From an uncultured bacterium (lineage in GTDB: Bacteria; JACRDZ01): a DNA stretch of 64,000 nucleotides. The translations under genes and the position numbers were made by a program. The notes under the pieces were generated by a model. That model worked only from the letters and a program-made list of their open reading frames with translations, searched no databases and was not told where the DNA came from. Of the stretch, positions 2,541 to 19,083 are shown one piece after another (position 1 is the first letter of the stretch; the number at the start of each line of letters is the position of its first letter). Location: positions 5,275 through 69,274 of the forward strand of contig CAYWFU010000007.1 in the NCBI GenBank assembly GCA_964457585.1, in the 5' to 3' direction.

Positions 2541-3557
2541 GTGAATGTGTTAAAAGGTAAATCTATACTAGTTACTGGAGGAACAGGTTCATTTGGTAAA
2601 AAATTTGTAGAAATAGTCTTAAATAAATATCCTGAAATTGAGAGATTAGTTGTTTATTCTCGAGATGAACTTAAGCAATTTGAGATGACCCAGATATTTT
2701 CAGATAAAAAGTTTCCTCAGTTAAGATATTTTATTGGTGATGTAAGGGATAAAGATCGGTTATTTCGTGCTATGGAAGGAATCGATATTGTAGTTCATGC
2801 TGCTGCACTGAAGCAGGTACCTGCTGCTGAGTATAATCCATTTGAAGCAGTGAAGACTAACATTATTGGCGCTCAAAATGTAATTGAAGCTGCTATTGAC
2901 AGAGGAGTTAAGCAGGTAGTAGCTTTAAGTACAGATAAAGCTGCTGCGCCCATTAATCTGTATGGAGCTACAAAACTTTGTTCAGATAAGATTTTTGTTG
3001 CAGCTAATAACTTTAAAGGGAAACATGATATTAAGTTTTCAGTTGTTAGATATGGAAATGTTTTAGGGAGCAGAGGGAGTGTTATTCCATTTTTTATAGA
3101 AAAACGCAAATATGGAGTTGTACCTATCACTGATAAACGAATGACTAGATTTAATATTACTTTAGATGAAGGTGTGAAATTTGTTCTTTTTGCGTTAAAA
3201 AATATGTGGGGAGGAGAGATATTTATACCTAAAATACCAAGTTATCGTATTTTGGATGTAGCAGAAGCTATTGCCCCTGGTGTAAAACAAGAAATAGTGG
3301 GTATTAGACCAGGTGAAAAATTACATGAGGAAATGATTACTGAGACAGATGCATTAAATACTGCAGAGTTCGATAATTATTATGTTATATTCCCATCTTT
3401 GCAATTATGGTCAATAGAGGATTTTATAAGAACATTTAAAGGAAATATGTGTCGGGAAAATTTTAAATATAACAGTGAAATGAATACTGATTGGCTTACT
3501 GTTGAAAGGATAAGAGAATTAATTAAGCAACATATAGATCCAAATTTCTTAGCTTAA
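2541..3557 (+). CDS. pseB: UDP-N-acetylglucosamine 4,6-dehydratase (inverting), PseB
   Basis: ILVTGGTGSFGK Rossmann motif and YSRDELKQFEM, closely like Campylobacter PseB/FlaA1; ~336 aa. AGGAG at 2535-2539 suggests the real start is the GTG at 2547 rather than 2541. Confidence 0.8.
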   Translation: MNVLKGKSILVTGGTGSFGKKFVEIVLNKYPEIERLVVYSRDELKQFEMTQIFSDKKFPQLRYFIGDVRDKDRLFRAMEGIDIVVHAAALKQVPAAEYNPFEAVKTNIIGAQNVIEAAIDRGVKQVVALSTDKAAAPINLYGATKLCSDKIFVAANNFKGKHDIKFSVVRYGNVLGSRGSVIPFFIEKRKYGVVPITDKRMTRFNITLDEGVKFVLFALKNMWGGEIFIPKIPSYRILDVAEAIAPGVKQEIVGIRPGEKLHEEMITETDALNTAEFDNYYVIFPSLQLWSIEDFIRTFKGNMCRENFKYNSEMNTDWLTVERIRELIKQHIDPNFLA

Positions 3558-3569
3558 TAGTGAATAAAT

Positions 3570-4736
3570 ATGAGAAATTGTATTCCTTATGGACATCAAT
3601 CTATATCTGAAGAAGATGTTGATGCTGTTATTGAAGTGTTAAGATCTGATTGCCTTACACAGGGTCCAGCGATTGAACGCTTTGAAAAAGCTGTTGCAGA
3701 TTATTGCAACACAAAATACGCGGTAGCGGTAAACAGCGCTACATCTGCGCTTCACATTGCATGTATTGCTGCAGGATTAGGGAAAGGGGATATTTTATGG
3801 ACTTCTCCTAATACATTTGTAGCTTCTGCAAATTGCGGATTATATTGTGGAGCTTCAATAGATTTTGTAGATATAGACTCTCATACATATAATATAAGTA
3901 TAAACGAACTTAAAATTAAATTGAAAGAATCAAAATCAACAGGAAAGCTTCCAAAGATAGTTATTCCTGTTCATTTTGCAGGACAGTCATGCGATATGGA
4001 AGCTATTTCACGTCTTGCAAAACAATATGCTTTTAAAATTATTGAAGATGCATCACATGCAATTGGGGGGGCTTACCAGAAGAGTCGAATAGGGTCATGC
4101 TTTTTTTCCGATATGACTGTTTTTAGTTTTCACCCGGTAAAAATTATTACAACTGGCGAAGGGGGAATGATTCTAACCAACTCCAGGGATTTGTTTAATA
4201 AACTTGTTCTTTTACGTTCACATGGGATTACTAGAAATACTGAATTTATGGCGGGGGAAACACACGGACCATGGTATTACCAGCAGATTGAGTTGGGTTT
4301 TAATTATAGAATGACAGATATGCAAGCAGCTCTTGGGTATAGCCAGATGAAGCGTATTGATGATTTTGTATATCGTCGTAATTATTTGGCAAATCGATAT
4401 ACCCAATTAATGAAAGATTTACCTTTATCTTTACCTTATCTAGATGTAGATTCATATTCAGCTTATCATTTATATGTTATATGTTTAAAGCTGGATAAGA
4501 TTAATAAATCTCATCGTCAAGTATTTGAAGAACTCAGGAGTGCGGGTATTGGTGTGAATTTACATTATATTCCAGTGCATACACAACCTTATTATCAAAA
4601 ATTAGGTTTTAAAATAGGGGATTTCCCAGCAGCAGAAAAATATTATTCAGAAGCGATTAGTTTACCTTTATTTTATTCGCTTAAAGAAAAAGATCAAGAT
4701 TATATTATTAATTCCATAATAGAAGTATTAAAATGA
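3570..4736 (+). CDS. pseC: DegT/DnrJ/EryC1 PLP-dependent aminotransferase, PseC-like
   Basis: IPYGHQSISEEDVDAV...LTQGP N-terminus and overall DegT-family fold; immediately follows pseB; stop overlaps next start (ATGA). Confidence 0.75.
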   Translation: MRNCIPYGHQSISEEDVDAVIEVLRSDCLTQGPAIERFEKAVADYCNTKYAVAVNSATSALHIACIAAGLGKGDILWTSPNTFVASANCGLYCGASIDFVDIDSHTYNISINELKIKLKESKSTGKLPKIVIPVHFAGQSCDMEAISRLAKQYAFKIIEDASHAIGGAYQKSRIGSCFFSDMTVFSFHPVKIITTGEGGMILTNSRDLFNKLVLLRSHGITRNTEFMAGETHGPWYYQQIELGFNYRMTDMQAALGYSQMKRIDDFVYRRNYLANRYTQLMKDLPLSLPYLDVDSYSAYHLYVICLKLDKINKSHRQVFEELRSAGIGVNLHYIPVHTQPYYQKLGFKIGDFPAAEKYYSEAISLPLFYSLKEKDQDYIINSIIEVLK

Positions 4737-5461
4737 AAATAGTTATAATTGTTCAGGCGAGAATGACATCTGTTCGATTGCCAGGTAAAGTTTTAAAAGA
4801 AGTGCTTAATAAACCACTGTTAGAATATCAAATAGAAAGACTCAAACGTGTAGCTTATAAAGATGAAATAATAGTTGCAACAACTTTAAACAATACTGAT
4901 CAGCCGATTGTTGAATTATGTAATAAATTATTAATATCTTTTTATCGCGGACCAGAAGATGATGTGTTATCCCGTTATTATAATGCAGCTTTATATACAA
5001 ATGCGGATGTTATTATTAGAGTAACTTCGGATTGTCCTATCATTGATCCAAATGTAATTGATAAAACCATACGTTTTTATCTTGATAATAATTCTAAATT
5101 TGATTATGTTTCTAATTGCTTGAAACGTACTTATCCAAGAGGGATGGATACTGAAGTTTTTCCTTTTAGAGTATTAAAAGAAGCTTATAATGAAGCAACA
5201 AAAAAAATGGAGAGAGAACACGTTACTTCATTTATTCATAAACAACCTGACCGTTATCGTTTAGGTAATTTTTTTTATTATCAAGATAAAAGTAATCATA
5301 GATGGACAGTTGATATGCCTGAAGATTTTGAACTGATAAAAAAGATTATTGAAAATCTTTATATGAAAAATCAGGAATTTACTTTAGAAGATGTATTAAA
5401 AATGTTTGAAGAAGATCCTAATCTTTTTTTAATAAATGCACATATTGAACAAAAAGTTTGA
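4733..5461 (+). CDS. pseF: nonulosonic-acid cytidylyltransferase (CTP_transf_3; PseF by synteny, SpsF/KdsB-like sequence)
   Basis: MKIVIIVQARMTSVRLPGKVL N-terminal nucleotide-binding motif of the KdsB/NeuA/SpsF superfamily; sits in the canonical pseB-pseC-pseF position. Confidence 0.6.
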   Translation: MKIVIIVQARMTSVRLPGKVLKEVLNKPLLEYQIERLKRVAYKDEIIVATTLNNTDQPIVELCNKLLISFYRGPEDDVLSRYYNAALYTNADVIIRVTSDCPIIDPNVIDKTIRFYLDNNSKFDYVSNCLKRTYPRGMDTEVFPFRVLKEAYNEATKKMEREHVTSFIHKQPDRYRLGNFFYYQDKSNHRWTVDMPEDFELIKKIIENLYMKNQEFTLEDVLKMFEEDPNLFLINAHIEQKV

Positions 5462-5490
5462 AATAAATTTTTTTTAAAGGAGCCTGATAA

Positions 5491-6111
5491 ATGGGAAATT
5501 TTAAAACAGAGCAAGAAAAGTTTTGGGCTGGTAATTTTGGAGATGAATACACCTCTAGAAATCAAGGTGTAAAATGTATAGCCAGCAATCTTGCATTATT
5601 TGCAAAGATTCTAAATGAAACCAAGACTATTAAATCTGTAATTGAATTTGGTGCAAATTTAGGATTAAATTTATTAGCGATTAAACAACTTTTACCAGAG
5701 GCTAAGTTATCAGCTATAGAGATTAATTTAAAAGCAGTTGAGTATTTAAATAAAATTGACGATATAAAAGTTTACCATAAATCAATTCTCGATTTTTTAC
5801 CTGAATGTAATCACGATTTAGTGCTTATCAAAGGGGTATTGATTCATATCAATCCTGACAGCCTGCCACAAGTTTACGATTCGCTTTATAATACAAGCAG
5901 TCGTTATATTTGTATTGCTGAATATTATAATCCAAGTCCAGTTGAAGTTATTTATAGGGGTGAAAAAGGTAAATTGTTTAAACGTGATTTTGCTGGTGAA
6001 ATGTTAGATAGATTTAAAGACCTTCAGTTGGTTAATTACGGTTTTGTTTATCGCAGGGATGAAAAATTTCCGCAAGATGATATCACTTGGTTTTTATTAG
6101 AAAAAAAATAA
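5491..6111 (+). CDS. SAM-dependent methyltransferase, pseudaminic-acid-biosynthesis-associated methylase-like
   Basis: Motif I VIEFGANLGLNL; ~200 aa. Placement inside the pse cluster matches the Pse-associated methylase family as I recall it. Confidence 0.5.
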   Translation: MGNFKTEQEKFWAGNFGDEYTSRNQGVKCIASNLALFAKILNETKTIKSVIEFGANLGLNLLAIKQLLPEAKLSAIEINLKAVEYLNKIDDIKVYHKSILDFLPECNHDLVLIKGVLIHINPDSLPQVYDSLYNTSSRYICIAEYYNPSPVEVIYRGEKGKLFKRDFAGEMLDRFKDLQLVNYGFVYRRDEKFPQDDITWFLLEKK

Positions 6112-6138
6112 TTAAATTATAAGTATTGGAGATAAAAA

Positions 6139-7284
6139 ATGAATTATTGCAAGAGATGTGTTATGCCTGATACAAAACCGGATCTTTATATAGATCAGGA
6201 AGGCGTTTGTAATGCATGCAGGAGTTATGAAAATAGGAAGAGTATTAATTACGATCAACGTAAAAAAGAATTATTAACAATACTTGATAAATATAGATCA
6301 AAAGATGGAAAAAATTGGGATTGTATTATACCTGTCAGCGGGGGAAAAGATAGTCATTATCAAGTTATTAGAATGCTTCAATTTGGAATGAATCCATTAT
6401 GTGTAACAGCTTCAACATGTGACCTTTCAGAAATTGGGCGAAAAAATATTGAAAATATAAAAAAACTTGGAGTGGATTATTTGGAATTTTCTCCAGATAA
6501 AATCATAAGAAGAAAACTAAATCGAATAGGTTTAACTCAAGTTGGAGATATCTCATGGCCTGAGCATGTAGGGATATTTACTATTCCCGTAAGAGCGGCA
6601 GTTCAATATAATGTTCCTTTACTTATATGGGGAGAAAATTCGCAACATGAGTATGGTGGACCTGCATCTGCTAGTGAAAATAATATATTAAATAGGCAAT
6701 GGCTTGAAGAGTTTGGAGGGTTATTAGGATTACGTGTTTCTGATATTATTGGTTTGGATGGAATAGAAGAAAAGCATCTTATTCCTTATAATTATCCTGG
6801 TGATGAAGAACTTAAGAGAATCGGCGTTACAGGAGTATTTCTCGGGCATTATATTCCATGGGATGGTTATTCAAATGCTTTAATAGCTCAGGCTCATGGG
6901 TTTACAACATTGAATACTACTGTTGAGGGTTCTATTGTAAATTATGAGAATTTAGATAATTATCATACGGGTATTCATGATTATTTTAAGTTTTTGAAAT
7001 TTGGTTTTGGCCGTGCAACTGATATAGCCTGTCTTCATATAAGAAGAGACCGTATTACCCGTCAGGATGGTATTGAGTTGATAAATAAGCATGATGGTAA
7101 ATTCCCATGGACATATTTAGGAAAACCTATTGAACAGATTCTTTATCCGCTTGACCTAACGATTGATGAGTTTATAAAAATCTGTGATCGCTTCACAAAT
7201 AAGAAAATATTTCGTACAAATTCAAAAGGTGAGTTGTGTAAGGATAAGCATGGTAATTTAATTCTTATTAATAGTTGCAAATAA
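6139..7284 (+). CDS. N-acetyl sugar amidotransferase (WbuX/PseA-like, PP-loop ATPase)
   Basis: N-terminal Cys cluster CKRCVMPDT...CNAC, PP-loop SGGKDS. Accompanied downstream by HisH-like and HisF-like genes, as in the WbuX/Y/Z triad. Confidence 0.75.
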   Translation: MNYCKRCVMPDTKPDLYIDQEGVCNACRSYENRKSINYDQRKKELLTILDKYRSKDGKNWDCIIPVSGGKDSHYQVIRMLQFGMNPLCVTASTCDLSEIGRKNIENIKKLGVDYLEFSPDKIIRRKLNRIGLTQVGDISWPEHVGIFTIPVRAAVQYNVPLLIWGENSQHEYGGPASASENNILNRQWLEEFGGLLGLRVSDIIGLDGIEEKHLIPYNYPGDEELKRIGVTGVFLGHYIPWDGYSNALIAQAHGFTTLNTTVEGSIVNYENLDNYHTGIHDYFKFLKFGFGRATDIACLHIRRDRITRQDGIELINKHDGKFPWTYLGKPIEQILYPLDLTIDEFIKICDRFTNKKIFRTNSKGELCKDKHGNLILINSCK

Positions 7285-7347
7285 CCCAAGTTAAAGTATT
7301 GTTATAATAAAAAATTATTAATATAGTAAAAAGAAAGATGAAAAGTT

Positions 7348-8292
7348 ATGCATAATTTACCATTTCCAAGAGTTATCCGAATAGAACCGGCTAGCTTATG
7401 TAATCTAAAATGTTCACATTGTCCTACAGGGACTATTAAATTAGAACGTGGGATAATGGACATAACAACATTTCAGATTGTTATTGAAAATATAAAAAAA
7501 AATATTGATTTTATAAAAGTAGCAGTAATGTATCATGGAGGGGAACCTCTTATTAACAAAGACCTGTCCATGATGATATCAGAAGTAAAAGATATAGGTA
7601 TCCCCTTTGTAAAGACTGTATCAAACGGAATGTTTCTAAATGAAAAATCGACTGAAGCTTTAGTTAAAAGCGGGTTAGATAGTATTGAAATTTCCATTGA
7701 TGCAACAAGTTCAGAAATTAGCGATTTTGTTAGAAAAAATAGCAACTCAAAAAAAATAATGGAGAACATAAAAAGATTTATATCTATTAAAGATGAGTTA
7801 AAATTAAGCACTCCAGAGGTTTTTATTGCTACAACCCAATTCAAAGACAAAGCATCTACATTTGTTGAAGCTCAGGTTCCTAAATACCTTCTGGATGAAT
7901 TTCGGGATTTATATAAGGAGAAAAAGCTTAATTTCATATCGACTTACGCAATGCTATGGCCTCACATGGAAGTAGACACATCAATATATGATGTATTTTG
8001 TATTAAAGAGTCAAAAGGAGCCAATGATACCTGCGATCACCTTAATAATACTATGACAATAAGATGGAATGGGGATATTGTCCCTTGTTGTTATGACCTT
8101 ACAAGTAGATATGTGATTGGCAACATCCATTCTGAAAAACTTTCAGAGATATGGAATAATGCTAGGCACAAAGCAATAAGGGATGGAATATTAAACAAAA
8201 AGTTCATTGGGCCTTGCAAGAGTTGCAATATGGTATTACCTGGTAATTATATATCATTGAAAGAAGAAGTAATACGCAGAGTCACAGGATAA
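7348..8292 (+). CDS. radical SAM enzyme with C-terminal SPASM/twitch-like Cys-rich domain
   Basis: CNLKCSHCPTG (Cx3Cx2C) near N-terminus; C-terminal NGDIVPCCYD...GPCKSCN auxiliary-cluster motif. Confidence 0.75.
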   Translation: MHNLPFPRVIRIEPASLCNLKCSHCPTGTIKLERGIMDITTFQIVIENIKKNIDFIKVAVMYHGGEPLINKDLSMMISEVKDIGIPFVKTVSNGMFLNEKSTEALVKSGLDSIEISIDATSSEISDFVRKNSNSKKIMENIKRFISIKDELKLSTPEVFIATTQFKDKASTFVEAQVPKYLLDEFRDLYKEKKLNFISTYAMLWPHMEVDTSIYDVFCIKESKGANDTCDHLNNTMTIRWNGDIVPCCYDLTSRYVIGNIHSEKLSEIWNNARHKAIRDGILNKKFIGPCKSCNMVLPGNYISLKEEVIRRVTG

Positions 8293-8296
8293 TATT

Positions 8297-8911
8297 ATGA
8301 GCTTGATTGTAATAGATTATGGTATGAGCAACCTTGGATCAATAAGACGTTCATTTGAGGAATGCGGTGCAGACGTAATTGTTTCTGATGATCCTCAAGA
8401 TTTGAAATTAGCAAGTCATATTGTACTTCCCGGTGTAGGTTCGTTTTCAGATGGCATGATAAATCTCCAGAAAAAGGGATGGGTACATTCTATTAAAGAG
8501 GCGGTTGTTGAAAAGCAAATCCCTTTACTTGGTATTTGTCTAGGGATGCAGCTACTTGCAGACAAAGGCTATGAGGGTGGTAATATTACAGGTCTTGAGC
8601 TGATACATGGGGAAGTTAAAAAATTAGAAACTAATTCTCAATCAGAAAGAATTCCGCATGTGGGATGGAATGAAATTATTAAAAATATTTCATCTCCGCT
8701 TTTTTATGAAATACCGGATAGATCGGATTTTTATTTTGTTCATAGTTATCATTTTATACCTAATCAAAGAGAAAATATTTTAGCTTTTACACCATATTGT
8801 GATAATTTTGTTTCGGCTGTTGTAAATAATAATGTTTATGGAGTACAATTCCATCCGGAAAAAAGTGGACGTTTTGGAATGCGGCTTCTTAAAAATTTTA
8901 TTAATATATAA
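8297..8911 (+). CDS. imidazole-glycerol-phosphate-synthase HisH-like glutamine amidotransferase (WbuY-like)
   Basis: Class-I GATase motifs GICLGMQLL, HVGWN, FHPEKS. Confidence 0.85.
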   Translation: MSLIVIDYGMSNLGSIRRSFEECGADVIVSDDPQDLKLASHIVLPGVGSFSDGMINLQKKGWVHSIKEAVVEKQIPLLGICLGMQLLADKGYEGGNITGLELIHGEVKKLETNSQSERIPHVGWNEIIKNISSPLFYEIPDRSDFYFVHSYHFIPNQRENILAFTPYCDNFVSAVVNNNVYGVQFHPEKSGRFGMRLLKNFINI

Positions 8912-8926
8912 GGAGTTAGTAAAAAA

Positions 8927-9715
8927 TTGTTAAAAGTTCGTTTGATACCTACTTTACTATTGAAGGATGTTGGTTTAGTAAAAGGTATTGGTTTTAACAG
9001 CTGGCGCAGAGTTGGTACAGTTATGCCCGCAATCAAGGTTTATAATACCAGACAAGTGGATGAGCTTATTATTGTTGATATTACGGCATTTAGAGAAGGT
9101 CGTTTACCAGATTGTGATCAAATAAAAGATTTTTCAGCGGATTGTTTTGTACCTTTAACCATAGGCGGCGGGATACGTAGTTTTGATGATATAAGGAATT
9201 TACTTCGTGCCGGAGCAGATAAAGTATGTATCAATAGCATAACTTATGAAAAACCTGAATTTATCAAAGAAGCTGCAAATAAATTTGGTTCGCAGTGTAT
9301 AGTTGTAAGCATTGATGTGGGGAAAAAAAATGATGGAAGTTATGAGTGTTTTAGTTATTCAGGATCAAAATCAACAGGAAAAGATCCTGTAACTTGGGCT
9401 AAAGAGATTGAATCTTTAGGTGCGGGAGAATTATTAATCACATCTATTGAAAGAGATGGAACTATGCAGGGATACGATTTAGAGTTAATTAAAAAAATTA
9501 CTAAAAGTGTAAATATTCCAGTAATTGCTTCAGGTGGTTGTGGAAATTATAATCACATGTATGAAGTTATATCTTATTCCGGAGCTTCTGCTGTAGCAGC
9601 AGCAAGTATTTTTCATTTTACTCATCAAACACCAATGGAGGCAAAGCTTTTTTTATCATCTAAAGGAATGCCGGTAAGAAACGTAAATATTAATAAGAAT
9701 ATAATAGAGAATTAA
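8927..9715 (+). CDS. HisF-like cyclase subunit (WbuZ-like)
   Basis: MLKVRLIPTLLLKD N-terminus like HisF (RIIPCLDVKDG), (beta/alpha)8 pattern, GGGIRS. TTG start. Confidence 0.85.
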   Translation: MLKVRLIPTLLLKDVGLVKGIGFNSWRRVGTVMPAIKVYNTRQVDELIIVDITAFREGRLPDCDQIKDFSADCFVPLTIGGGIRSFDDIRNLLRAGADKVCINSITYEKPEFIKEAANKFGSQCIVVSIDVGKKNDGSYECFSYSGSKSTGKDPVTWAKEIESLGAGELLITSIERDGTMQGYDLELIKKITKSVNIPVIASGGCGNYNHMYEVISYSGASAVAAASIFHFTHQTPMEAKLFLSSKGMPVRNVNINKNIIEN

Positions 9716-9717
9716 TT

Positions 9718-10752
9718 ATGTCGATAAATGTTATGTTTAGAGCAGATTCGTCATCGATTATTGGTACAGGTCATATAATGCGTTGTTTGACTTTGGCAGA
9801 TTCTCTAAAAGAAAAAGGTGTTGAAATAAGTTTTATTAGTATTAAAGAAAAAGGAAATTTAATACAATTAATTGAAGAAAAAGGATATAAGGTTTATAAA
9901 TTACCTATAAAATCTGATGAGAAAAAAACCTTAGATATATTAAAAAACCAAAAATCTACAATAGATTGGCTGATAATAGACCATTATAATATTGATACTT
10001 TTTGGGAAACCAAATTTAATAAATTTGTTAAAAAAATAATGGTAATTGATGATCTGGCAAATAGAAAACATAATTGTGAGCTTTTATTAGATCAAAATTA
10101 TTATCTTAAAAAAAATAGATATAAAGGATTAATTTCTAATAAATGTAAGCAATTAATTGGCCCTGATTTTGCATTAATTAAAAAAGAGTTTTTAAAGTTA
10201 CGAAAAAAATTAGAACCACGTACAGGAAAAGTAAAACAAATATTGGTTTTTATGGGTGGTGCAGATTTTACAAATGAAACTTCAAAAATACTAAAAGCTA
10301 TTAAATTGTTGAATAATCCTGGTATTAAATTTAATATTGTTATAGGCCCTGCTAATCAGTATTACAATAAATTAAAAAAAGAAATAGCCAAAATATCAAA
10401 TGCTGTTTGTTTTTATAATATAAATAATATGGCCGAATTAATGTTTAATGCTGATTTATGTATCGGAGCATGCGGTTCTACAACATGGGAAAGATTAATT
10501 ATGGGTATTCCAAGTATTGTTATTATTATTGCTGATAATCAAAAAGAAAATGCTGAAAGTCTTGATAAAAAAGAATGTATAATAAATCTTGGATTTTATA
10601 ATAAGGTTACTATTAAAAACGTATTTACAAAAATAGAATATTTAATTAACAATCCTAATATTATTAAACGAATGAGCAAAAAAGCGCAAAAAATTGTTGA
10701 TGGCAAAGGTACTGGCAGGGTTACAAATATTTTATTAAAGGCAGGTCAATAA
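9718..10752 (+). CDS. pseG: UDP-2,4-diacetamido-2,4,6-trideoxy-beta-L-altropyranose hydrolase, PseG
   Basis: FRADSSSIIGTGHIMRCLTLA matches the PseG N-terminal signature [21 protein letters not shown]; GT-B-like length. Confidence 0.8.
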   Translation: MSINVMFRADSSSIIGTGHIMRCLTLADSLKEKGVEISFISIKEKGNLIQLIEEKGYKVYKLPIKSDEKKTLDILKNQKSTIDWLIIDHYNIDTFWETKFNKFVKKIMVIDDLANRKHNCELLLDQNYYLKKNRYKGLISNKCKQLIGPDFALIKKEFLKLRKKLEPRTGKVKQILVFMGGADFTNETSKILKAIKLLNNPGIKFNIVIGPANQYYNKLKKEIAKISNAVCFYNINNMAELMFNADLCIGACGSTTWERLIMGIPSIVIIIADNQKENAESLDKKECIINLGFYNKVTIKNVFTKIEYLINNPNIIKRMSKKAQKIVDGKGTGRVTNILLKAGQ

Positions 10753-11456
10753 TGTCAATAAAAAACAGGATAGTAATTGCAACTATTAAGTCATGGAATA
10801 TAGCAAACGCAATAAAATTTAAGAATATTCATAGCGAAGAATTTGAAACGTTAATAATTACTAAAAAAGAAGATTTGAATTTAAATTATATAAAAGATTT
10901 TGATCCAAAATATATTTTTTTCCCGCATTGGTCATGGATAATTAAAAATGATATATACGATAATTTTGATTGTATAGTTTTTCATATGACAGATTTACCA
11001 TTTGGAAGAGGAGGCAGTCCCCTTCAGAATTTAATTATAAATAAAATTTACAATACAAAAATTTCTGCCATTAAAGTAGACGGTGAAATAGATACTGGTA
11101 AAATTTATTTTAAAGAAGATTTTTATATAGGATTGGGTAATGCAGATGAGATCTTTCAAAGAATTTCAGAATTAATATTTTTTAAAATGATACCAAATAT
11201 TTTGAAAAACAATATAATTCCACAAGAACAAACAGGCGATATAACTTATTTCAACAGAAGAACTCCGGAAGATAGCGATATTTCTAAAGCTAGTTTAAAC
11301 AATTTTGATGATTTATATGATTTTATTAGAATGTTAGATGGGGAAGGTTATCCAAATGCTTTTTTAAAACTTGGAAAATTTAAAATATCCTTTAAAGAAA
11401 TATCTGAAAAATCTGATAAAGTTACAGGAAGATTTGAAATTGAGGAGGAAAAATGA
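10752..11456 (+). CDS. formyltransferase-domain protein (Fmt/PurN N-terminal-like)
   Basis: HMTDLPFGRGGSPLQNLII resembles the formyltransferase catalytic core (His...Asp, SLLP-like loop); overlaps neighbours by ATGA. Confidence 0.55.
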   Translation: MSIKNRIVIATIKSWNIANAIKFKNIHSEEFETLIITKKEDLNLNYIKDFDPKYIFFPHWSWIIKNDIYDNFDCIVFHMTDLPFGRGGSPLQNLIINKIYNTKISAIKVDGEIDTGKIYFKEDFYIGLGNADEIFQRISELIFFKMIPNILKNNIIPQEQTGDITYFNRRTPEDSDISKASLNNFDDLYDFIRMLDGEGYPNAFLKLGKFKISFKEISEKSDKVTGRFEIEEEK

Positions 11457-12130
11457 AAAGAGTTCTTATTGTTGCTGCTCATCCTGACGATGAAGTTTTA
11501 GGTTGTGGCGGAACTGCTGCGAGATTAATAAAAAACAACTATGAAATATTTACTCTTATTCTTGGCGAAGGAATTACTTCAAGAGATTATATAAAAAATA
11601 TAGAAAATCGAAAAAAAGAAATTGATGAATTGAAACATGAAATAAAACAAGCAAATAAAATTATTGGGATAAAAAACGTTTTCACTTTTGATTTTCCTGA
11701 TAACAGGTTTGATACAATTGCTTTATTGGATATTGTAAAAGCTATTGAAAAAATAAAAAATGAAGTTAACCCGGAAATTATATTTACACATTATGAAAAA
11801 GATTTAAACATTGATCATAAGATTACTTTTAACGCAGTAATGACTGGAACCAGACCATTTGGTAAAGAAATTGTAAAAGAAATATATTCTTTTGAGATTC
11901 CGTCTTCAACAGAATGGAATTGTCCTTTGAGTTTCTCCCCTGATGTTTTTTTTGATATTGATAATACACTTGAATGTAAATTAAAAGCAATAGAAGCATA
12001 TAAAACAGAATTAAAAGAATTCCCTCATCCAAGATCTATTGAAGGGATTAAACGGCACGCAAAATATTGGGGTATATGTGTTGGTTTAAATCAAGCCGAA
12101 GCATTCAAAAGTATAAGAGTAATAAAATAA
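11453..12130 (+). CDS. PIG-L/LmbE family N-acetylglucosaminyl deacetylase
   Basis: VLIVAAHPDDEVLGCGGT zinc-binding AHPDDE motif. Confidence 0.85.
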   Translation: MKRVLIVAAHPDDEVLGCGGTAARLIKNNYEIFTLILGEGITSRDYIKNIENRKKEIDELKHEIKQANKIIGIKNVFTFDFPDNRFDTIALLDIVKAIEKIKNEVNPEIIFTHYEKDLNIDHKITFNAVMTGTRPFGKEIVKEIYSFEIPSSTEWNCPLSFSPDVFFDIDNTLECKLKAIEAYKTELKEFPHPRSIEGIKRHAKYWGICVGLNQAEAFKSIRVIK

Positions 12131-12142
12131 TTATAATAATTA

Positions 12143-12691
12143 TTGAATATACTGGTTAACTCAATGAAAAAATTAAAAAAAAATTTTAAGATTGAAGACG
12201 GCATTTTTATTAATTTTGTTAATATTAATGTTGAAGAAAAAGAAATAGTTCGAAATTGGAGAAATGATAAAAATATCAGACAATGGATGTACAATGATCA
12301 TAAAATTTCTTCTTTGGAGCATGCTGAATTTTTAGAAAAATTAAAATATGATAAAAAAAATTTTTATTGGCTTATAAAAAAAAATCAAGAGTATATAGGT
12401 GTTATTTATTTTAATAAAGTTGATTTAAAAAATAAAAATGCATATTTTGGTATTTATACTAATCCTGAAAACTATAAAAAAGGGAATGGGCAATTAATTT
12501 TTAGATATTCAAAAAAAATAATTTTTGAAATAGCTAATTTTCATACAATAAAATTGGAAGTAATTGAAAATAATCATAAAGCTATAAATTTTTATAAAAA
12601 AGTTGGATTTTTCAAAGAAGGAACTTTAAAAGAATTTATTTTTAAAGATGGAAAATGGCTTGATGTAATTATTATGGGCATTGTAAATTAA
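12143..12691 (+). CDS. pseH: GNAT N-acetyltransferase, PseH-like
   Basis: VRNWRND..IRQWM, EHAEFLEKL, YWLI....IGVIYFN......AYFGIY parallels Campylobacter PseH (KWRNHPDINQFM ... FGLY). Likely true start at Met 12164. Confidence 0.75.
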   Translation: MNILVNSMKKLKKNFKIEDGIFINFVNINVEEKEIVRNWRNDKNIRQWMYNDHKISSLEHAEFLEKLKYDKKNFYWLIKKNQEYIGVIYFNKVDLKNKNAYFGIYTNPENYKKGNGQLIFRYSKKIIFEIANFHTIKLEVIENNHKAINFYKKVGFFKEGTLKEFIFKDGKWLDVIIMGIVN

Positions 12692-12727
12692 TATATTATA
12701 TCAAATAATAAAAAAGGGGAAGAATAG

Positions 12728-13780
12728 TTGAATCCAATTCAAATTAGTAATAAAAAAATAGGGCAGGGTTATGAACCATTTATTATTGCTGAAATGTCAG
12801 GGAATCATAATCAGTCATTAGAAAGAGCTTTAGCTATAATTGAAGCAGCAGCAAAAACAGGTGTCCATGCTTTGAAGCTGCAAACTTATACGGCAGATAC
12901 AATGACTTTAGATATTGAAGAAGGGGATTTTTTTATTGAAGATCCAAAAAGTTTATGGAAAGGAACTTCATTATATAAACTTTACCAAAAAGCTTACACT
13001 CCATGGGAATGGCATGAGCCTATTTTTAAGCGGTGTAAAGAATTGGGCTTAATCGCGTTTAGTACTCCTTTTGATGAGACATCTGTGGATTTTTTAGAAA
13101 AATTGAATGTCCCAGCATATAAAATAGCATCATTTGAAAATAATCATATACCTTTAATTCGTAAAGTTGCATCTACGGGAAAACCTATGATTATATCTAC
13201 CGGTATGGCAACAATAGCAGAGCTTGATGAAACAATCAGAACAGCAAGAAATTCCGGCTGTAATGATATAATATTGCTCAAATGTACAAGTACATATCCT
13301 GCTACACCGGAAGATGCAAATATCATGACCATACCGCATATGCACAAATTATTCAATGTGCAGGTTGGCTTATCCGACCACACAATGGGAATAGGTGTTG
13401 CAATAGCAAGTGTAACATTGGGAGCAACAGTTGTTGAAAAACATTTCACACTAAGACGTGCTGATGGTGGTGTGGATTCAGCATTTTCAATAGAACCGGA
13501 AGAAATGCAAATGCTTGTAAAAGAAACTAATAATGCATGGCAGGCGTTAGGAAAAGTTAATTACGGCCCAACTAAAACAGAAAAATCATCGATGAGATAT
13601 CGAAGATCTCTTTATGTGATTCAAGATATTGAAGCAGGAGGGCAATTCACCCATGATAATATTAAGGCAATTAGACCGGGTTTTGGTTTACCAACTAAAT
13701 ATATTGAAATAATTATTGGAAGAAAAGCAAAAAAAATAATTAAAAAAGGCACTCCTTTATATTGGGATTTAATTTTTTAA
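12728..13780 (+). CDS. pseI: pseudaminic acid synthase, PseI (NeuB family, full length with C-terminal SAF domain)
   Basis: PFIIAEMSGNHNQSLERALAIIEAAAKTGVHALKLQTY NeuB TIM-barrel signature plus C-terminal antifreeze-like domain; TTG start. Confidence 0.85.
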   Translation: MNPIQISNKKIGQGYEPFIIAEMSGNHNQSLERALAIIEAAAKTGVHALKLQTYTADTMTLDIEEGDFFIEDPKSLWKGTSLYKLYQKAYTPWEWHEPIFKRCKELGLIAFSTPFDETSVDFLEKLNVPAYKIASFENNHIPLIRKVASTGKPMIISTGMATIAELDETIRTARNSGCNDIILLKCTSTYPATPEDANIMTIPHMHKLFNVQVGLSDHTMGIGVAIASVTLGATVVEKHFTLRRADGGVDSAFSIEPEEMQMLVKETNNAWQALGKVNYGPTKTEKSSMRYRRSLYVIQDIEAGGQFTHDNIKAIRPGFGLPTKYIEIIIGRKAKKIIKKGTPLYWDLIF

Positions 13781-13846: not shown

Positions 13847-14611
13847 ATGAAATTGAAAAATAAAATAAGTCAAGACAAAATTTATAGCACAGAGGAACAA
13901 CTTAGTGTTAAAACACAATTGGGTGATTTGTTTGAGTCTGATAGAGGGCAAACATCTGATAAATTAAGCGCTTTTACAAAGTATATTACCAGACAAGATT
14001 TAAGTCTTTTTCTGGCACGATATGAAATTTTTAAAAAAGTCATGGGTATTAAAGGCTCAATTATTGAATGTGGAGTTTATTTTGGAAATGGGCTTATGAC
14101 TTATTCACAACTGAGTGCTGCATTGGAACCAATAAATTATAATCGACGAATTATAGGTTTTGATACATTTTGCGGGAACAAGGGGGAAACGAAAAACGAT
14201 TTACCTAGTAAAGCAGCTGCTGGTTTAACGCAAGCACAATATGATATTGATTCAGAAAATGAAATACTAAAATGTATAAATATTTATGATAAAAATCGTT
14301 TTTTAAATCATATTTCTAAAGTAGAGTTGGTAAGGGGAGATATTATTAAAACAATTCCACAATATATTATTGAAAATCCACACTTAATAGTGAGTATTTT
14401 AGAGCTATCTGTAAATCTTTATGAGCCGACTAAAGTCGCATTAAAACATATCTTACCAAGAATGACAAAAGGGTCAATTATTTCGGTTAATACTTTGAAT
14501 GAAGGGATTTTTCCTGGTGTAACTTTGGCTATTAAAGAAGAATTGGGAATTAATAATGTGTGTATTCAAAGTTTTGAATATGCACCAAACCTCTCTTATA
14601 TTGTTTTATAA
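13847..14611 (+). CDS. TylF/MycF-family class I SAM-dependent (O-)methyltransferase
   Basis: IIECGVYFGNGLMTYS and IIGFDTFCG resemble macrocin-O-methyltransferase family motifs (E.GV..G.S ... FDSF.G). Confidence 0.5.
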   Translation: MKLKNKISQDKIYSTEEQLSVKTQLGDLFESDRGQTSDKLSAFTKYITRQDLSLFLARYEIFKKVMGIKGSIIECGVYFGNGLMTYSQLSAALEPINYNRRIIGFDTFCGNKGETKNDLPSKAAAGLTQAQYDIDSENEILKCINIYDKNRFLNHISKVELVRGDIIKTIPQYIIENPHLIVSILELSVNLYEPTKVALKHILPRMTKGSIISVNTLNEGIFPGVTLAIKEELGINNVCIQSFEYAPNLSYIVL

Positions 14612-14654
14612 TTTAATATCTAATCACCATTCTTAAAATTCAAGGATAAAATAA

Positions 14655-15944
14655 ATGAAGTTTCGTTATATGAAAAGATTTATCGATGAATTAATAGAAT
14701 ATTTTCTTGTGAATTTAAAGGGTTATAAGAATTCAAAAGATTCTGAACTATTAAACAATACTATTTCTTTGAAAAATAAGTACAAAGGAGAGCGGCTGTT
14801 TATATTTTTTTCAGGGGTGAGTATAAAAAAAATAAATTTGGATATTTTCAACAACGAATATACAATGGCAACAAATTATTTTGTACTTCATTATAAGTTT
14901 AAAAAACTTAATTTTGATTTTTATAGTATGGTTGCTTCTTGGAATATGAAAGAAGCCATTAACTATGAGTGGCTTACCGGTATTGTCTATAATAAAGTGA
15001 AACCGGAAATGAAGATATTTCTTCATTCCTCATCGCATAGCTGGCTTTCAAATATACCTTCATATAAACCCGAGATTACGTATTATGTTTCACCCTTACC
15101 TAATGGATTTCCTGATTATTGCAATGTGCAGGATTCAATGAAAGGAGTGTTCACTTGTAGCATATCTTTAGCAATACATATGGGATTTAAAGAAATTTAC
15201 CTTGTTGGTTCAGATTATACAAAATCACCGCAAATTGTAGGACATTTCTATGATGGGGAATATGTTAAGCAAGAGCCAACCAAAGAATTGTTAGAAATGC
15301 ACACTAATGTAAATGAATATGCGAAAAAAAATGGGGTAAAAATTTTTAATATAATTGAAGACGATTTTAAAAGTCCCATATTTGAGGGTATTAATATAAA
15401 TGACATTTATGCTCTTTTTAATAATCAAAATAAACAGTCTTATACTGATAAATTGATTGATAGGATCGATGCTTTAGTATTCGATTTTGATGGTGTATTG
15501 ACAGACAATTTAGTATATGTTGATCAGAACGGTAATGAACAGGTTTGCTGTAATCGAGGTGATGGACTTGCTTTTGATGCGCTTCGCAAGCTTAATATAA
15601 AGACTTTTATTATATCTACCGAAACAAATTCTGTTGTGGCAGAACGGGCAAAAAAATTAAAAATTCCTGTACAACAAGGTATTGCCAATAAACTGGAAGC
15701 ATTAATATCTTTAGCAAAAAAAGAAAATATAGATATAGCTCGTATATTGTATGTTGGAAATGATTTAAACGATCTGGAAGTTATGAAAACATGCGGGTTG
15801 TCTGCCTGTCCTGCGGATAGTCATGAAAGAATTAAAGAGATTAGCCGTTTTAAATTAAAAACTTTAGGTGGAAAAGGACTCGTTCGAGAGTTAGTAGAAG
15901 ATTTATTAAAAATAAATATTGAAGAAATTCTATATAAAAAATAA
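14655..15944 (+). CDS. fusion protein: N-terminal DUF115/MptE-like (Maf-type) domain + C-terminal KdsC-type HAD sugar-acid phosphate phosphatase
   Basis: N-terminal half: LFIFFSGVSI ... SISLAIHMGFKEIYLVGSDYT, the DUF115 pattern. C-terminal ~165 aa: ALVFDFDGVLTDN...GDGLA...YVGNDLNDLEVM...ADSH, the KdsC HAD motifs I-IV. Confidence 0.7.
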   Translation: MKFRYMKRFIDELIEYFLVNLKGYKNSKDSELLNNTISLKNKYKGERLFIFFSGVSIKKINLDIFNNEYTMATNYFVLHYKFKKLNFDFYSMVASWNMKEAINYEWLTGIVYNKVKPEMKIFLHSSSHSWLSNIPSYKPEITYYVSPLPNGFPDYCNVQDSMKGVFTCSISLAIHMGFKEIYLVGSDYTKSPQIVGHFYDGEYVKQEPTKELLEMHTNVNEYAKKNGVKIFNIIEDDFKSPIFEGININDIYALFNNQNKQSYTDKLIDRIDALVFDFDGVLTDNLVYVDQNGNEQVCCNRGDGLAFDALRKLNIKTFIISTETNSVVAERAKKLKIPVQQGIANKLEALISLAKKENIDIARILYVGNDLNDLEVMKTCGLSACPADSHERIKEISRFKLKTLGGKGLVRELVEDLLKINIEEILYKK

Positions 15945-15964
15945 AAAAAGGAGGAATTGAATTA

Positions 15965-16795
15965 ATGTTTATTATTGCAGAGATAGGAATCAATCATAAT
16001 GGTGATTTAAAAATCGCCAAACAGCTTATTGATGTTGCAAAGATCGCTGGTTGTGATGCAGTCAAATTCCAAAAAAGAACCATAGATTTGGTTTACACTA
16101 AGGAATTATTGGATTCACCGCGGGAAAGTCCATGGGGAAAAACACAGCGAGCCCAAAAAGAAGGCTTAGAGTTTAATTATGCTCAGTATAAAGAAATAGA
16201 CGATTATTGTCGTCATAAAGAAATTGAATGGTTTGCGTCTGCCTGGGATCATGAAAGCCAGAAATTCATAAGACAGTTTGATTTTAAACATAATAAAGTT
16301 GCATCAACAATGATAGTTGATGAGAAATTTTTAAAAATGGTTGCGAGCGAAGGAAAACATACATTTATATCTACAGGGATGAGTTCCCTGGATATAATCG
16401 ATAAAGCTGTTCAAATTTTCAGGGATATGAAATGTTCATTTGAACTTATGCATTGTGTTGCTACATATCCTATGAAAGATGAAGATGCAAATCTTAATTG
16501 TATTCCTATGCTTCGTGAGCGATATAAATGCGATGTTGGATATAGCGGACATGAAACAGGTTTGGCTATATCCTACGCTGCTGCGGCATTTGGAATATCC
16601 TCACTTGAAAGACATATAACATTAGACCGCGCTATGTATGGTTCCGATCAATCTGCTTCTGTTGAACCTATAGGTATTATGCAATTGGTTGGAGGTGTGC
16701 GAAAAATTGAACGTGTGCTTGGAAATGGTAAAAAAACAATTATAGAAGCAGAAATTCCAATTGCAAAAAAACTTCGTGCGCATATTCAAGGGTAA
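15965..16795 (+). CDS. NeuB-family sugar-phosphate/PEP-condensing synthase, short form lacking the SAF domain
   Basis: MFIIAEIGINHNGDLKIAKQLIDVAKIAGCDAVKFQK NeuB catalytic barrel; only 276 aa, no C-terminal antifreeze-like domain. Confidence 0.75.
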   Translation: MFIIAEIGINHNGDLKIAKQLIDVAKIAGCDAVKFQKRTIDLVYTKELLDSPRESPWGKTQRAQKEGLEFNYAQYKEIDDYCRHKEIEWFASAWDHESQKFIRQFDFKHNKVASTMIVDEKFLKMVASEGKHTFISTGMSSLDIIDKAVQIFRDMKCSFELMHCVATYPMKDEDANLNCIPMLRERYKCDVGYSGHETGLAISYAAAAFGISSLERHITLDRAMYGSDQSASVEPIGIMQLVGGVRKIERVLGNGKKTIIEAEIPIAKKLRAHIQG

Positions 16796-16806
16796 AGGGG
16801 AAAATT

Positions 16807-18246
16807 ATGATTATTAAAGATAAACGTAAATTTTTAAATGAAGAAACATGTTATAGTCCTGATTTTCATATAGCGGACTATGAATTGGGAAAATATTCTT
16901 TTAACGAATCCGCACTTTCAAATCTTGGAATTAAATCAACTATGACCAAATCTGAAGACTTATGGAAACGCGGGCGTAAAATTATTCCCTGTGGTACTCA
17001 GACACTTGGAAAGAGCCCGATAGGTTTTATTGATGGCGTTGCCCCTAAATATTTATCACATGGAAAAGGCGGCCGAGTCTGGGATGTTGACGGAAATGAA
17101 TATATAGATTGCTGGCTTGCCTGTTTACCAATAACGTTTGGATATCGTGTTGAAGAAATAGATAATGCTATAATCGAGCAGGTAACAAAAAGCGGAATTA
17201 CTTTTTCCCTAATGCATTCATTAGAGGTGGAAGTTGCTGAAATGCTGCAGGAAGATATTTCAATTGCTGAACAAATAAGGTTTACAAAAAACGGTTCTGA
17301 TGTTTGTGAAGCTGCTGTTCGTTTAGCAAGATATTTAACAAAACGAGATAAAGTTATTACTTTAGGTTATCATGGTTTTCATGATTGGTATATAGCAAGC
17401 ACTGATCGTAATGGCGGAATTCCTGATTGCATAAAAGAAAGAACTTTGCGTTTTGCTTATAATAATATTGATAATTTAAAAAAATTGTTTGATACAAATA
17501 AAAATGAGATAGCCTGTGTAATTATGGAGCCTACTATTTTTGAAGCTCCTAAGGATGATTTTTTAGCTAAAGTAAAAGATGTTTGTCATAAAAATGGAGC
17601 ATTATTGATTTTTGATGAAATGCTCACTGGTTATAGATTCTCAACTAACGGTGCAATGTCTTTTTTTGAAGTTGAGCCGGATTTAGCTACTTTCGGAAAA
17701 GGAATTGCTAATGGAATGCCGATAGGCATTCTCGTTGGATTAGAAAAACACATGCGAGGATTTGAAGAAGTTTTTCTTTCAAGCACTTATGGCGGGGAGA
17801 CTCTTACTCTTGCGGCAACATTAGCAGGTCTTAAGTATCACCGTAAGAATGATGTTGTTGGCCACATGTGGCAAATAGGGAAAATTGTTCTGGATAATTT
17901 CAGACAATCGATCAAAAAATTTAATTTAGAAAAAAACATATCAGCTATTGGTTACCCTGTACGACAAACATTGACTTTTAAAAAAGATAATGGGGAACCT
18001 GATTATAGCTTAGCAGGTCTTTTTCAACAGGAAATGCTGAAAAATGGTGTGCTATGCAATTCAGGACTTGGTTTTTGTCATAAACATTCTGCTAATGATG
18101 CTATGCATGTAGCAAGAAGTTTTGACAAAGCATGCTTATTAATGCAAGAAGCTATAAAATCCGGTAACCTTGAACGTTATTTAAAAGGTAACCCTGCGCA
18201 ACCTGTTTTTCGTGGATTGCGCGATCAGAAAGTAACATCAAATTAA
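16807..18246 (+). CDS. class-III PLP aminotransferase (glutamate-1-semialdehyde aminomutase-like)
   Basis: Fold-type I class III pattern; the catalytic-Lys region contains DEMLTGYRFSTNGAMSFF, with the lysine in ATFGKGIANGMPIGIL. Confidence 0.75.
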   Translation: MIIKDKRKFLNEETCYSPDFHIADYELGKYSFNESALSNLGIKSTMTKSEDLWKRGRKIIPCGTQTLGKSPIGFIDGVAPKYLSHGKGGRVWDVDGNEYIDCWLACLPITFGYRVEEIDNAIIEQVTKSGITFSLMHSLEVEVAEMLQEDISIAEQIRFTKNGSDVCEAAVRLARYLTKRDKVITLGYHGFHDWYIASTDRNGGIPDCIKERTLRFAYNNIDNLKKLFDTNKNEIACVIMEPTIFEAPKDDFLAKVKDVCHKNGALLIFDEMLTGYRFSTNGAMSFFEVEPDLATFGKGIANGMPIGILVGLEKHMRGFEEVFLSSTYGGETLTLAATLAGLKYHRKNDVVGHMWQIGKIVLDNFRQSIKKFNLEKNISAIGYPVRQTLTFKKDNGEPDYSLAGLFQQEMLKNGVLCNSGLGFCHKHSANDAMHVARSFDKACLLMQEAIKSGNLERYLKGNPAQPVFRGLRDQKVTSN

Positions 18247-18255
18247 AAGGACATC

Positions 18256-19083
18256 ATGCTAGGAAGTTCATTGTTTGGAGTAATGCAGGGCAGATTACTT
18301 CCTAAATATAAAGGACGTTATCAAGCCCATCCATTAGGATATTGGCAGGAAGAATTTTTTATTGCTGCAAAATTTGGTTTGGATATTATTGAATTTATTC
18401 TTGATTATGAAGATGCTGAAAAAAATCCAATTTTATTTGATCCTGATTCAATATGTAAAATAATTGAAAAAACAGGAGTGAAAGTAAAAAGCGTATGCGC
18501 AGATTATTTTATGGAAGCTCCTGTATATTCAAACCCTGATAGCAGTGCTATTCTTGAACGTTTAATTCGAAATGCGAGTATTGTTGGAATACGTGATATT
18601 GTTATCCCATGTGTGGATAAATCCAGTCTTCATGGACGCAAAGAAGCAGCATCATTTATTGAAAATTTGCTTGCTGTCATTCCTTTAGCAGAGAAAACAG
18701 AAGTGAATTTGGCTCTTGAAACTGATTTGCCCCCGGATGATTTTGCATGGTTGTTATCACAATTTAATTCTAAAGTAGTGACAGTTAATTATGATACCGG
18801 TAACAGCGCTTCTTCAGGGTATAATCTGATTGAAGAATTTGAAGCCTATGGTGATCGCATTACTGATATACATATAAAAGATAGAATTTGCGGAGGAGGC
18901 TCGGTATTATTAGGTACCGGCAATACAGACTTTGATGCACTTTTTTTATTTTTATCAAAAAACAAATTTAGTGGACCATTAATTATGCAAGCTTATCGAG
19001 ATGACGAGGGTATTGAGATTTTCAAACAACAACAAAAGTGGATACAAGATCGGTATAATAGATTTATAGAAAGGATTAAATAA
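18256..19083 (+). CDS. xylose-isomerase-like TIM-barrel sugar(-phosphate) isomerase/epimerase
   Basis: Metal-ligand motifs LALETD and DIHIKD typical of the AP_endonuc_2 / xylose isomerase-like TIM barrel. Confidence 0.55.
   Translation: MLGSSLFGVMQGRLLPKYKGRYQAHPLGYWQEEFFIAAKFGLDIIEFILDYEDAEKNPILFDPDSICKIIEKTGVKVKSVCADYFMEAPVYSNPDSSAILERLIRNASIVGIRDIVIPCVDKSSLHGRKEAASFIENLLAVIPLAEKTEVNLALETDLPPDDFAWLLSQFNSKVVTVNYDTGNSASSGYNLIEEFEAYGDRITDIHIKDRICGGGSVLLGTGNTDFDALFLFLSKNKFSGPLIMQAYRDDEGIEIFKQQQKWIQDRYNRFIERIK

Follow-up and report, generated by a model that had tools for sequence, protein, structure and literature searches.

A block of 13 open reading frames (ORFs) at positions 2541-13780 of a 64,000-nucleotide stretch of DNA from an uncultured bacterium (contig CAYWFU010000007.1; the whole stretch is referred to below as the window) combines a core pathway for pseudaminic acid (Pse) with two accessory gene sets. 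One, module A, brings together genes predicted for amidino formation, methylation and radical chemistry; the other, module B, pairs a predicted deacetylase with a formyltransferase-like protein. On balance, we think it probable that the three together yield an N-modified Pse activated with cytidine monophosphate (CMP), the two accessory modules editing its N-substituents. The predicted product is a Pse with both formamido and acetamidino groups, the latter possibly N-methylated, or several such derivatives mixed together. The locus is a Pse system of a known kind, and its accessory modules are present in many copies in the databases. Its interest lies in two proteins, a BtrN-like radical S-adenosylmethionine (SAM) enzyme and a member of an Fmt-like family in which the catalytic Asn of formyltransferases is missing.

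The core pathway and its cytidylyltransferase

Gene identities were assigned with NCBIfam models at their curated cut-offs and with Pfam models at Pfam thresholds (Table 1). The genes lie exactly where an initial annotation of this DNA had placed them, and its gene list was largely right. Its claim that pseB, pseC, pseF, pseG, pseH and pseI are all present holds for five of the six: PseB, PseC, PseG, PseH and PseI score above their NCBIfam cut-offs, whereas the supposed PseF reaches 26.5 bits on the PseF equivalog model, TIGR03584, against a cut-off of 205.7. The closest solved relative of this protein is a Leptospira cytidylyltransferase (PDB 6OEW, E = 2.4e-46). Across 54 related loci that contain pseB, pseC and pseI, a cytidylyltransferase of the 6OEW type is the only one in 25, a PseF-like enzyme is the only one in 19, and both occur together in 2. 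Because the two types are close to mutually exclusive, the window protein probably does the job of PseF, and the sequence comparisons point to a CMP-Pse synthetase that stands in for PseF from outside the PseF family. In the proposed pathway, PseB, PseC, PseH, PseG and PseI would convert UDP-N-acetylglucosamine (UDP-GlcNAc) to Pse, with the 6OEW-type cytidylyltransferase replacing PseF.

All 13 ORFs are on the plus strand, with intergenic gaps of at most 66 bp. Stop and start codons overlap at the junctions of pseC with the cytidylyltransferase gene, of pseG with the Fmt-like gene, and of the Fmt-like gene with the PIG-L gene, the last by 4 nt. The small gaps and overlapping codons make the block operon-like.

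Table 1. Genes of the Pse block, in order along the window, and the gene that adjoins it downstream. Scores are given with the model cut-off where one applies.
Feature	Coordinates	Strand	Model and score
pseB, UDP-GlcNAc 4,6-dehydratase (inverting)	2541..3557	+	TIGR03589, 530.6 bits (cut-off 407.75)
pseC, aminotransferase	3570..4736	+	TIGR03588, 555.4 bits (cut-off 423.5)
CTP_transf_3 cytidylyltransferase, 6OEW type	4733..5461	+	PF02348, 104.7 bits
Pse-associated SAM methyltransferase	5491..6111	+	TIGR03587, 299.3 bits (cut-off 112.05)
WbuX-type PP-loop N-acetyl sugar amidotransferase	6139..7284	+	TIGR03573, 340.7 bits (cut-off 203.2)
BtrN-like 'twitch' radical SAM enzyme, 314 aa	7348..8292	+	PF04055 and PF13186
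HisH-like glutaminase subunit (WbuY equivalent)	8297..8911	+	TIGR01855, 227.2 bits (cut-off 105.4)
WbuZ, HisF-like subunit	8927..9715	+	TIGR03572, 301.8 bits (cut-off 299.7; marginal)
pseG, UDP-sugar hydrolase	9718..10752	+	TIGR03590, 321.5 bits (cut-off 153.55)
1ZGH-family formyltransferase-like protein	10752..11456	+	PF21553 (C-terminal domain), 62.6 bits
PIG-L/LmbE-family de-N-acetylase	11453..12130	+	PF02585, 89.7 bits (threshold 28.2)
pseH, N-acetyltransferase	12143..12691	+	TIGR03585, 157.9 bits (cut-off 93.1)
pseI, pseudaminic acid synthase	12728..13780	+	TIGR03586, 510 bits (cut-off 340.25)
TylF-like methyltransferase, possible further tailoring gene	13847..14611	+	PF05711, 26.8 bits

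The amidotransferase module and its radical SAM enzyme

The accessory genes had been counted as three different N-acyl-tailoring systems, a division that does not stand: the methylase, WbuX, radical SAM, HisH and HisF proteins travel as one module. The accompanying reading of the amidotransferase triad as an acetamidino-forming system is supported by several lines of comparison. WbuX passes TIGR03573 and WbuZ passes TIGR03572 marginally, the latter scoring 273.8 bits on the AglZ/HisF2 model, under its cut-off of 310. The PP-loop of WbuX is intact (S67-G-G-K-D-S72), and the protein matches PDB 8WEX ('N-acetyl sugar amidotransferase') with E = 1.9e-42. Orthologues of the amidotransferase proteins found elsewhere at 50-80% identity sit within Pse clusters, and those of WbuX in radical-SAM-bearing Pse loci are 67-80% identical. 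A DNA search of E. coli complete genomes with the WbuX-to-WbuZ stretch returned no match. The Pse-associated methylase, also named correctly from the start, exceeds the TIGR03587 cut-off; no solved structural relative of it was found, and a literature search on the pseudaminic acid biosynthesis-associated methylase found no publication.

By family membership, WbuX would adenylate an N-acetyl carbonyl, and the HisH/HisF-like pair would deliver ammonia to give an acetamidino group. The TIGR03587 methylase would then probably methylate this group, by analogy with PtmG and PtmH of Campylobacter jejuni, which act on legionaminic acid (Leg) by acetimidoyl addition followed by methylation (bioRxiv 10.64898/2026.04.20.719630).

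The gene between WbuX and HisH, overlooked in the initial annotation, encodes the radical SAM protein. No NCBIfam family reaches its cut-off for this protein (best 106.8 bits, against 380). Its best PDB match by sequence is BtrN (E = 1e-16), which is also the top Foldseek match (E = 6.5e-15) of an AF2 model with a pLDDT of 88.3. The CX3CX2C cysteines C18, C22 and C25 are invariant in the family alignment (A2), and C229, C247, C290 and C293 align with C169, C187, C232 and C235, the auxiliary-cluster ligands of BtrN. These four cysteines predict a single auxiliary [4Fe-4S] cluster held by a shortened SPASM domain. A full SPASM domain with two auxiliary clusters was considered and rejected: the C-terminal domain keeps only five conserved cysteines, of which four correspond to the single cluster of BtrN and the fifth is an extra invariant residue, Cys248.

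The distribution of the radical SAM family is closely tied to the module. The family (156 representatives at E ≤1e-30, among 1.84 billion clusters at 50% identity) is found almost exclusively in Pse clusters, in the company of the methylase, WbuX, HisH and HisF. A metagenome scan anchored on the radical SAM gene gave 37 loci of at least 10 kb, in which WbuX is present in 30, pseB in 29, the methylase in 27, HisH in 23 and WbuZ in 22. Annotated contigs from four phyla, namely Candidatus (Ca.) Nitronauta, a flagellin glycosylation island of Clostridium tagluense, Limnohabitans and a cyanobacterium, contain pseB, pseC, a cytidylyltransferase, a methylase of ~206-212 aa, WbuX, the radical SAM enzyme, HisH, HisF, pseG, pseH and pseI in varying order; the C. 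tagluense stretch shown is without pseC and pseH. Of the 37 radical-SAM loci, 23 have a WbuX orthologue with an identity of 50% or more, as against none of 57 Pse loci of the same size anchored on the Fmt-like gene (Fisher p = 1e-12, kinship between loci being ignored).

In a plasmid collection, the only relatives are radical SAM paralogues of ~30% identity in Azospirillum and Brachyspira, and the one plasmid context inspected is glycan-related and not a Pse cluster. The Brachyspira hyodysenteriae plasmids NZ_CP019601.1 and NC_012226.1 (~36 kb) give five separate matches to the radical SAM protein at ~27% identity and so carry several radical SAM paralogues on one small plasmid.

The BtrN-like enzyme would perform an additional radical step on the sugar. 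Hydrogen abstraction or oxidation at a carbinol carbon is the most plausible form of that step, an assignment made by analogy with BtrN and with low confidence. Alternatively, the protein might epimerise the sugar, or work with the methylase in C-methylation, giving a stereoisomer of Pse or a C-methylated Pse. Twitch/SPASM radical SAM enzymes do include epimerases, EpeE is among the Foldseek hits, and the gene usually lies near the TIGR03587 methylase. We nevertheless regard this alternative as rather unlikely: the best match in both sequence and structure is a dehydrogenase, all four of its auxiliary cysteines are conserved, and Pfam detects no B12-binding domain in the window protein. At ~18% identity to BtrN (Foldseek alignment), neither the dehydrogenase reading nor the epimerase/methylation reading is secure. 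More boldly, and only as a tentative possibility that falls short of probable, the five members of module A could form a dedicated machine for a chemically undescribed substituent or ring modification of Pse that goes further than acetamidino or N-methylacetamidino. In that case, nonulosonic acid biosynthesis would gain in the BtrN-like protein its first assigned radical SAM enzyme, and the product would be edited further in this bacterium by the deacetylase and the Asn-less formyltransferase. A literature search combining pseudaminic acid with radical SAM found no publication on the topic, judged by title.

The formyltransferase-like protein and its PIG-L partner

The Fmt-like protein of module B is ~60% identical over residues 6-232 to PDB 1ZGH (E = 2.5e-78), and members of its family are ~60% identical between bacteria and archaea. 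The initial annotation had called it a formyltransferase-domain protein whose catalytic His and Asp should be examined. Both are kept: in an alignment with VioF and bacterial Fmt, His78 and Asp114 occupy the expected triad positions, and the third member, the catalytic Asn, is absent, its place being taken by Val76. The Asn-to-Val replacement holds across the family. H78, D81 and D114 do not vary among 12 bacterial and archaeal homologues, which have a mean column identity of 69%, and neither does the motif FHMTDLPxGRGGSPLQNLI (alignment A1); the family reads H-M-T-D-L-P where other enzymes have H-x-S-L-L-P. The expected domain PF00551 is not reported for the window protein at the Pfam threshold, PF21553 being the only domain found, and the scores on NCBIfam models lie below the cut-offs (45.9 bits against 777 for ArnA; 29.8 against 201.5 for Fmt).

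These departures leave room for a protein that is not a formyltransferase, catalysing instead another folate or sugar reaction (hydrolysis, or a different one-carbon transfer) or serving as a non-catalytic partner of PIG-L. The family-wide loss of the Asn, the altered motif with its gained and invariant Asp81, and the failure to detect PF00551 in the window protein all fit such a role, and a literature search on the function of 1ZGH found no publication. We judge it quite improbable all the same. The other two triad residues never vary, the fold and C-terminal domain are Fmt-like, many homologues do score on PF00551, and N-formyl nonulosonic acids exist; moreover, the high column identity across phyla argues for a constrained, active enzyme. 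The favoured reading of the protein thus remains a formyltransferase, which would re-acylate a freed amine with formyl from N10-formyltetrahydrofolate.

The expected PF02585 domain was found in its partner, the PIG-L protein, the motif A9-H10-P-D12-D13-E14 is present, and the best PDB matches are diacetylchitobiose deacetylase and BshB1, enzymes that remove the 2-N-acetyl group of GlcNAc glycosides. PIG-L would remove an N-acetyl group, most probably the one that stems from GlcNAc and sits on the future N5 of Pse. A literature search on pseudaminic acid and PIG-L found no publication.

At E ≤1e-10, the Fmt-like family has at least 7,908 members in the protein database, and a scan of species-representative genomes gave at least 579 relatives; the best 80 loci, many of them truncated contigs, were compared with the window proteins. 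No identical locus was among the matches listed, the best match being 63%. The 80 loci come from Campylobacterota, Aquificales, Clostridia, Bacteroidota, Planctomycetota, Patescibacteria, Methanohalophilus and others. A PIG-L gene directly follows the Fmt-like gene in 72 of the 80 by tblastn and in 70 of 79 by clustering, which fits the earlier suggestion that the two proteins act as a pair. Nearly all of these pairs lie within Pse clusters, mostly together with PseH. Clustering of the 79 best loci also places pseI in 57, pseH in 49, pseG in 46, pseC in 42 and pseB in 39; the tblastn figure for pseH (22 of 80) is an undercount, and PseG-PseH fusions add further cases to the clustered one. The window order pseG, Fmt-like, PIG-L, pseH, pseI recurs in Sulfurimonas, Sulfurospirillum, Aquificales, Cloacimonadota and Pirellulales. 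By these sequence comparisons, the pair looks like a conserved deacetylate-and-reformylate module.

Three loci (L096, L119 and L150) have a class I SAM methyltransferase directly upstream of PIG-L, replacing the Fmt-like protein. The pairing fits an amine that is freed and then derivatised, and hints at N-methylation of that amine.

Modules A and B also occur together. The Fmt-like and PIG-L genes are present in 7-8 of the 37 long radical-SAM-anchored loci, and no radical SAM or WbuX orthologue was found in the 57 long genome loci anchored on the Fmt-like gene. Locus L115 shares the window's order (methylase region, WbuX, radical SAM, HisH, WbuZ, pseG fused to a GNAT domain, Fmt-like, PIG-L, pseI), and L092, from a Planctomycetes bin, has the same gene set at 45-80% identity, the radical SAM gene at 48%. 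Loci with both modules are in the minority, but the window is not alone in having them. The view of the tailoring genes as unusual insertions does not survive these comparisons, in which each module is recurrent and widespread in Pse clusters and the same architecture is found in other contigs such as L115 and L092.

Which nitrogen each module edits can be approached through PseH. Among 31 Fmt-like loci with a complete core, PseH is present in 22, and a second Fmt paralogue takes its place in 5 of the remaining 9. The idea that the 1ZGH-type protein is itself a PseH substitute was rejected on this count, as PseH, a PseG-PseH fusion or a second paralogue accompanies it in most complete loci. 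The 1ZGH-type protein therefore acts elsewhere than on the PseC-derived amine.

A different division of labour is offered by Ca. Kuenenia stuttgartiensis. Its CMP-nonulosonic acids are reported to carry formyl on one amine while the other is free, and its cluster has a deacetylase and a formyltransferase (bioRxiv 10.64898/2026.04.20.719630, the SugarBase preprint). This preprint is the sole experimental anchor found for the deacetylase and formyltransferase module. If the window followed the same plan, the Fmt-like enzyme would formylate the PseC-derived 4-amine (N7) in lieu of acetylation and PIG-L would strip the GlcNAc-derived acetyl group, leaving a formamido group on one nitrogen and, at the other, an amine that is free or modified in some other way. 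The three loci that pair PIG-L with a methyltransferase and not an acyltransferase lend this some weight, as they imply that the freed amine need not be re-formylated. Against it stand the PseH proteins, fusions and second paralogues found beside the 1ZGH-type protein in most complete loci, and the bona fide PseH of the window itself, with which the N7 acyltransferase is already in place. We consider the Kuenenia-type scheme unlikely for this bacterium and retain N5 as the probable site of deacetylation and re-formylation.

A short (~190 aa), canonical formyltransferase occurs in related loci. In L083, its gene (9767-10348) adjoins the Pse synthase gene and the N-x-H motif is intact; homologues are found in L058, L074, L099, L106, L131, L147, L157, L162 and L165, and several of these loci have no detected PseH. 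From its sequence and context, this enzyme probably gives 7-N-formyl Pse.

Several observations weigh against the proposed assignment of both modules. Four radical-SAM/WbuX loci (L083, L099, L157 and L162) contain the short formyltransferase and no detected PseH; only N5 would keep an acetyl group there, and WbuX would therefore have to act on N5, the same nitrogen assigned here to PIG-L and the Fmt-like protein. Either the modules compete for N5 in the window, giving a mixture, an outcome that the initial annotation had allowed for, or one of the assignments is wrong. Formyl transfer by the Fmt-like protein is itself not assured, given Val76 at the catalytic Asn position and an N-terminal domain under the Pfam threshold. 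Acetamidino formation needs no radical step, so the proposed chemistry leaves the role of the radical SAM enzyme unexplained. The likeness of the Kuenenia genes to the Fmt-like and PIG-L genes of the window is one of description. Finally, the comparisons draw on loci that lack phylogenetic independence, many of them truncated contigs.

Setting of the block and comparison with known systems

The window has a G+C content of ~30% and nearly every gene on the plus strand. The Pse block is part of a ~52-kb surface-polysaccharide locus with Wzz-like, Wzy-like, glycosyltransferase, ABC-transporter and initiating-transferase genes, in which no flagellin gene was found. Many further sugar-modifying enzymes are encoded downstream in the window, and the accessory genes might accordingly modify other sugars of the polysaccharide, their position among the pse genes being incidental. 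This seems highly improbable, however, as both modules recur in compact Pse clusters of unrelated genomes, including a flagellin glycosylation island without polysaccharide genes.

Directly after pseI, a second ulosonic-acid-like sub-cluster extends over 13847-20652. It begins with the TylF-like methyltransferase, which has a 63%-identical homologue beside the radical SAM gene in L083 (C. tagluense) and a homologue of 44% identity in L125. The sub-cluster further encodes a 429-aa protein with a KdsC/KDN-9-phosphatase-like C-terminus, a NeuB-like synthase without a SAF domain (244.6 bits on the NeuB model, below cut-off), a class-III (GSA-like) aminotransferase, a xylose-isomerase-like TIM barrel (18256-19083), an SDR protein and a PseF-like cytidylyltransferase (19083-19844; 117 bits on the PseF model, below cut-off). 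It may produce a second CMP-activated sugar or a side chain. The TIM-barrel protein has relatives in fold in L002 (9190-10008) and L092 (a 430-aa ORF), where they occupy the pseG slot upstream of the Fmt-like gene.

Elsewhere in the polysaccharide locus, four B12-binding radical SAM genes (25607-26995, 28352-30166, 40988-42430 and 47428-48921), along with several SAM methyltransferases, suggest a glycan with many C- or O-linked methyl groups. PF06662, the C-terminal domain of D-glucuronyl C5-epimerase, is found at 172 bits in an ORF at 46443-47414. Two truncated genes mark the upstream edge of the locus, a Wzi fragment at 181-681 (profile positions 229-349 of 392) and, at 778-1173, a 131-aa ORF that matches only the C-terminal positions 349-467 of mannose-1-phosphate guanylyltransferase/PMI. 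At the downstream edge, the product of the sole large opposite-strand gene (55945-60120, minus strand) is 1391 aa long and combines six Big_5 Ig-like domains with multiple RCC1 repeats. A TPR-repeat protein with a signal-peptide-like N-terminus (~61870-64000) continues past the last position of the window.

Pseudaminic acids are found on flagella, capsules, O-antigens and S-layers, and surface charge, antigenicity and phage recognition are governed by the N-substituents that they carry. Both accessory gene sets belong to the conserved make-up of Pse clusters in many lineages of bacteria and some of archaea and are not oddities of one genome. They offer candidates for enzymology: routes to N-formyl, free-amine and amidino nonulosonic acids, a widespread formyltransferase-like family otherwise known only from a structural-genomics crystal structure (1ZGH), and a radical SAM step in nonulosonic acid chemistry. 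The practical value of this particular window is modest, as one more example in a low-G+C host.

The canonical Pse pathway of C. jejuni and Helicobacter pylori is the closest reference for the core. Five of its six enzymes have counterparts here that pass equivalog models, and the chemistry from UDP-GlcNAc to Pse should therefore match. The window differs from it in a cytidylyltransferase of another CTP_transf_3 lineage (6OEW-like), in eight interleaved accessory genes and in a polysaccharide setting, with Wzz, Wzy and glycosyltransferases, in place of a flagellar one. Acetamidino groups are formed by PseA of C. jejuni (Pse5Ac7Am), by WbuX/WbuY/WbuZ of E. coli O145 and by AglX/AglY/AglZ of Methanococcus maripaludis. 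Like these systems, the window has a PP-loop enzyme of the WbuX family and its two partners, HisH-like and HisF-like; here and in related loci, the triad is accompanied by a methylase (TIGR03587) and a radical SAM enzyme of the twitch type, neither of which is, to our knowledge, part of the PseA, WbuXYZ or AglXYZ systems.

The radical SAM enzyme resembles BtrN, the butirosin radical SAM dehydrogenase (PDB 4M7T), in its CX3CX2C motif, C-terminal twitch domain and four aligned auxiliary cysteines. It differs in belonging to another pathway with presumably another substrate, in its low identity, in being ~60 residues longer and in its additional invariant cysteine. The Fmt-like protein similarly shares the fold, the His and Asp of the triad and the PF21553 C-terminal domain with Fmt and with the sugar N-formyltransferases (VioF, the ArnA N-terminal domain and the WlaRD type), and departs from them in its Val for Asn, a shorter N-terminal subdomain and scores below the family cut-offs.

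Two further comparisons concern gene content. The PtmG/PtmH system likewise has an amidotransferase and a methyltransferase between aminotransferase and synthase genes (bioRxiv 10.64898/2026.04.20.719630), a likeness drawn from gene descriptions; its sugar is Leg and not Pse, and the window adds a radical SAM enzyme. Halorubrum sp. PV6 makes 5-N-formyl-legionaminic acid and has a predicted formyltransferase in its Leg cluster (PMC6137143). Judged by description, the window resembles both the Halorubrum cluster, with its formyltransferase among nonulosonic acid genes, and that of Kuenenia, with its deacetylase and formyltransferase; both are described as Leg-like, whereas the window also contains PseH and the amidotransferase module.

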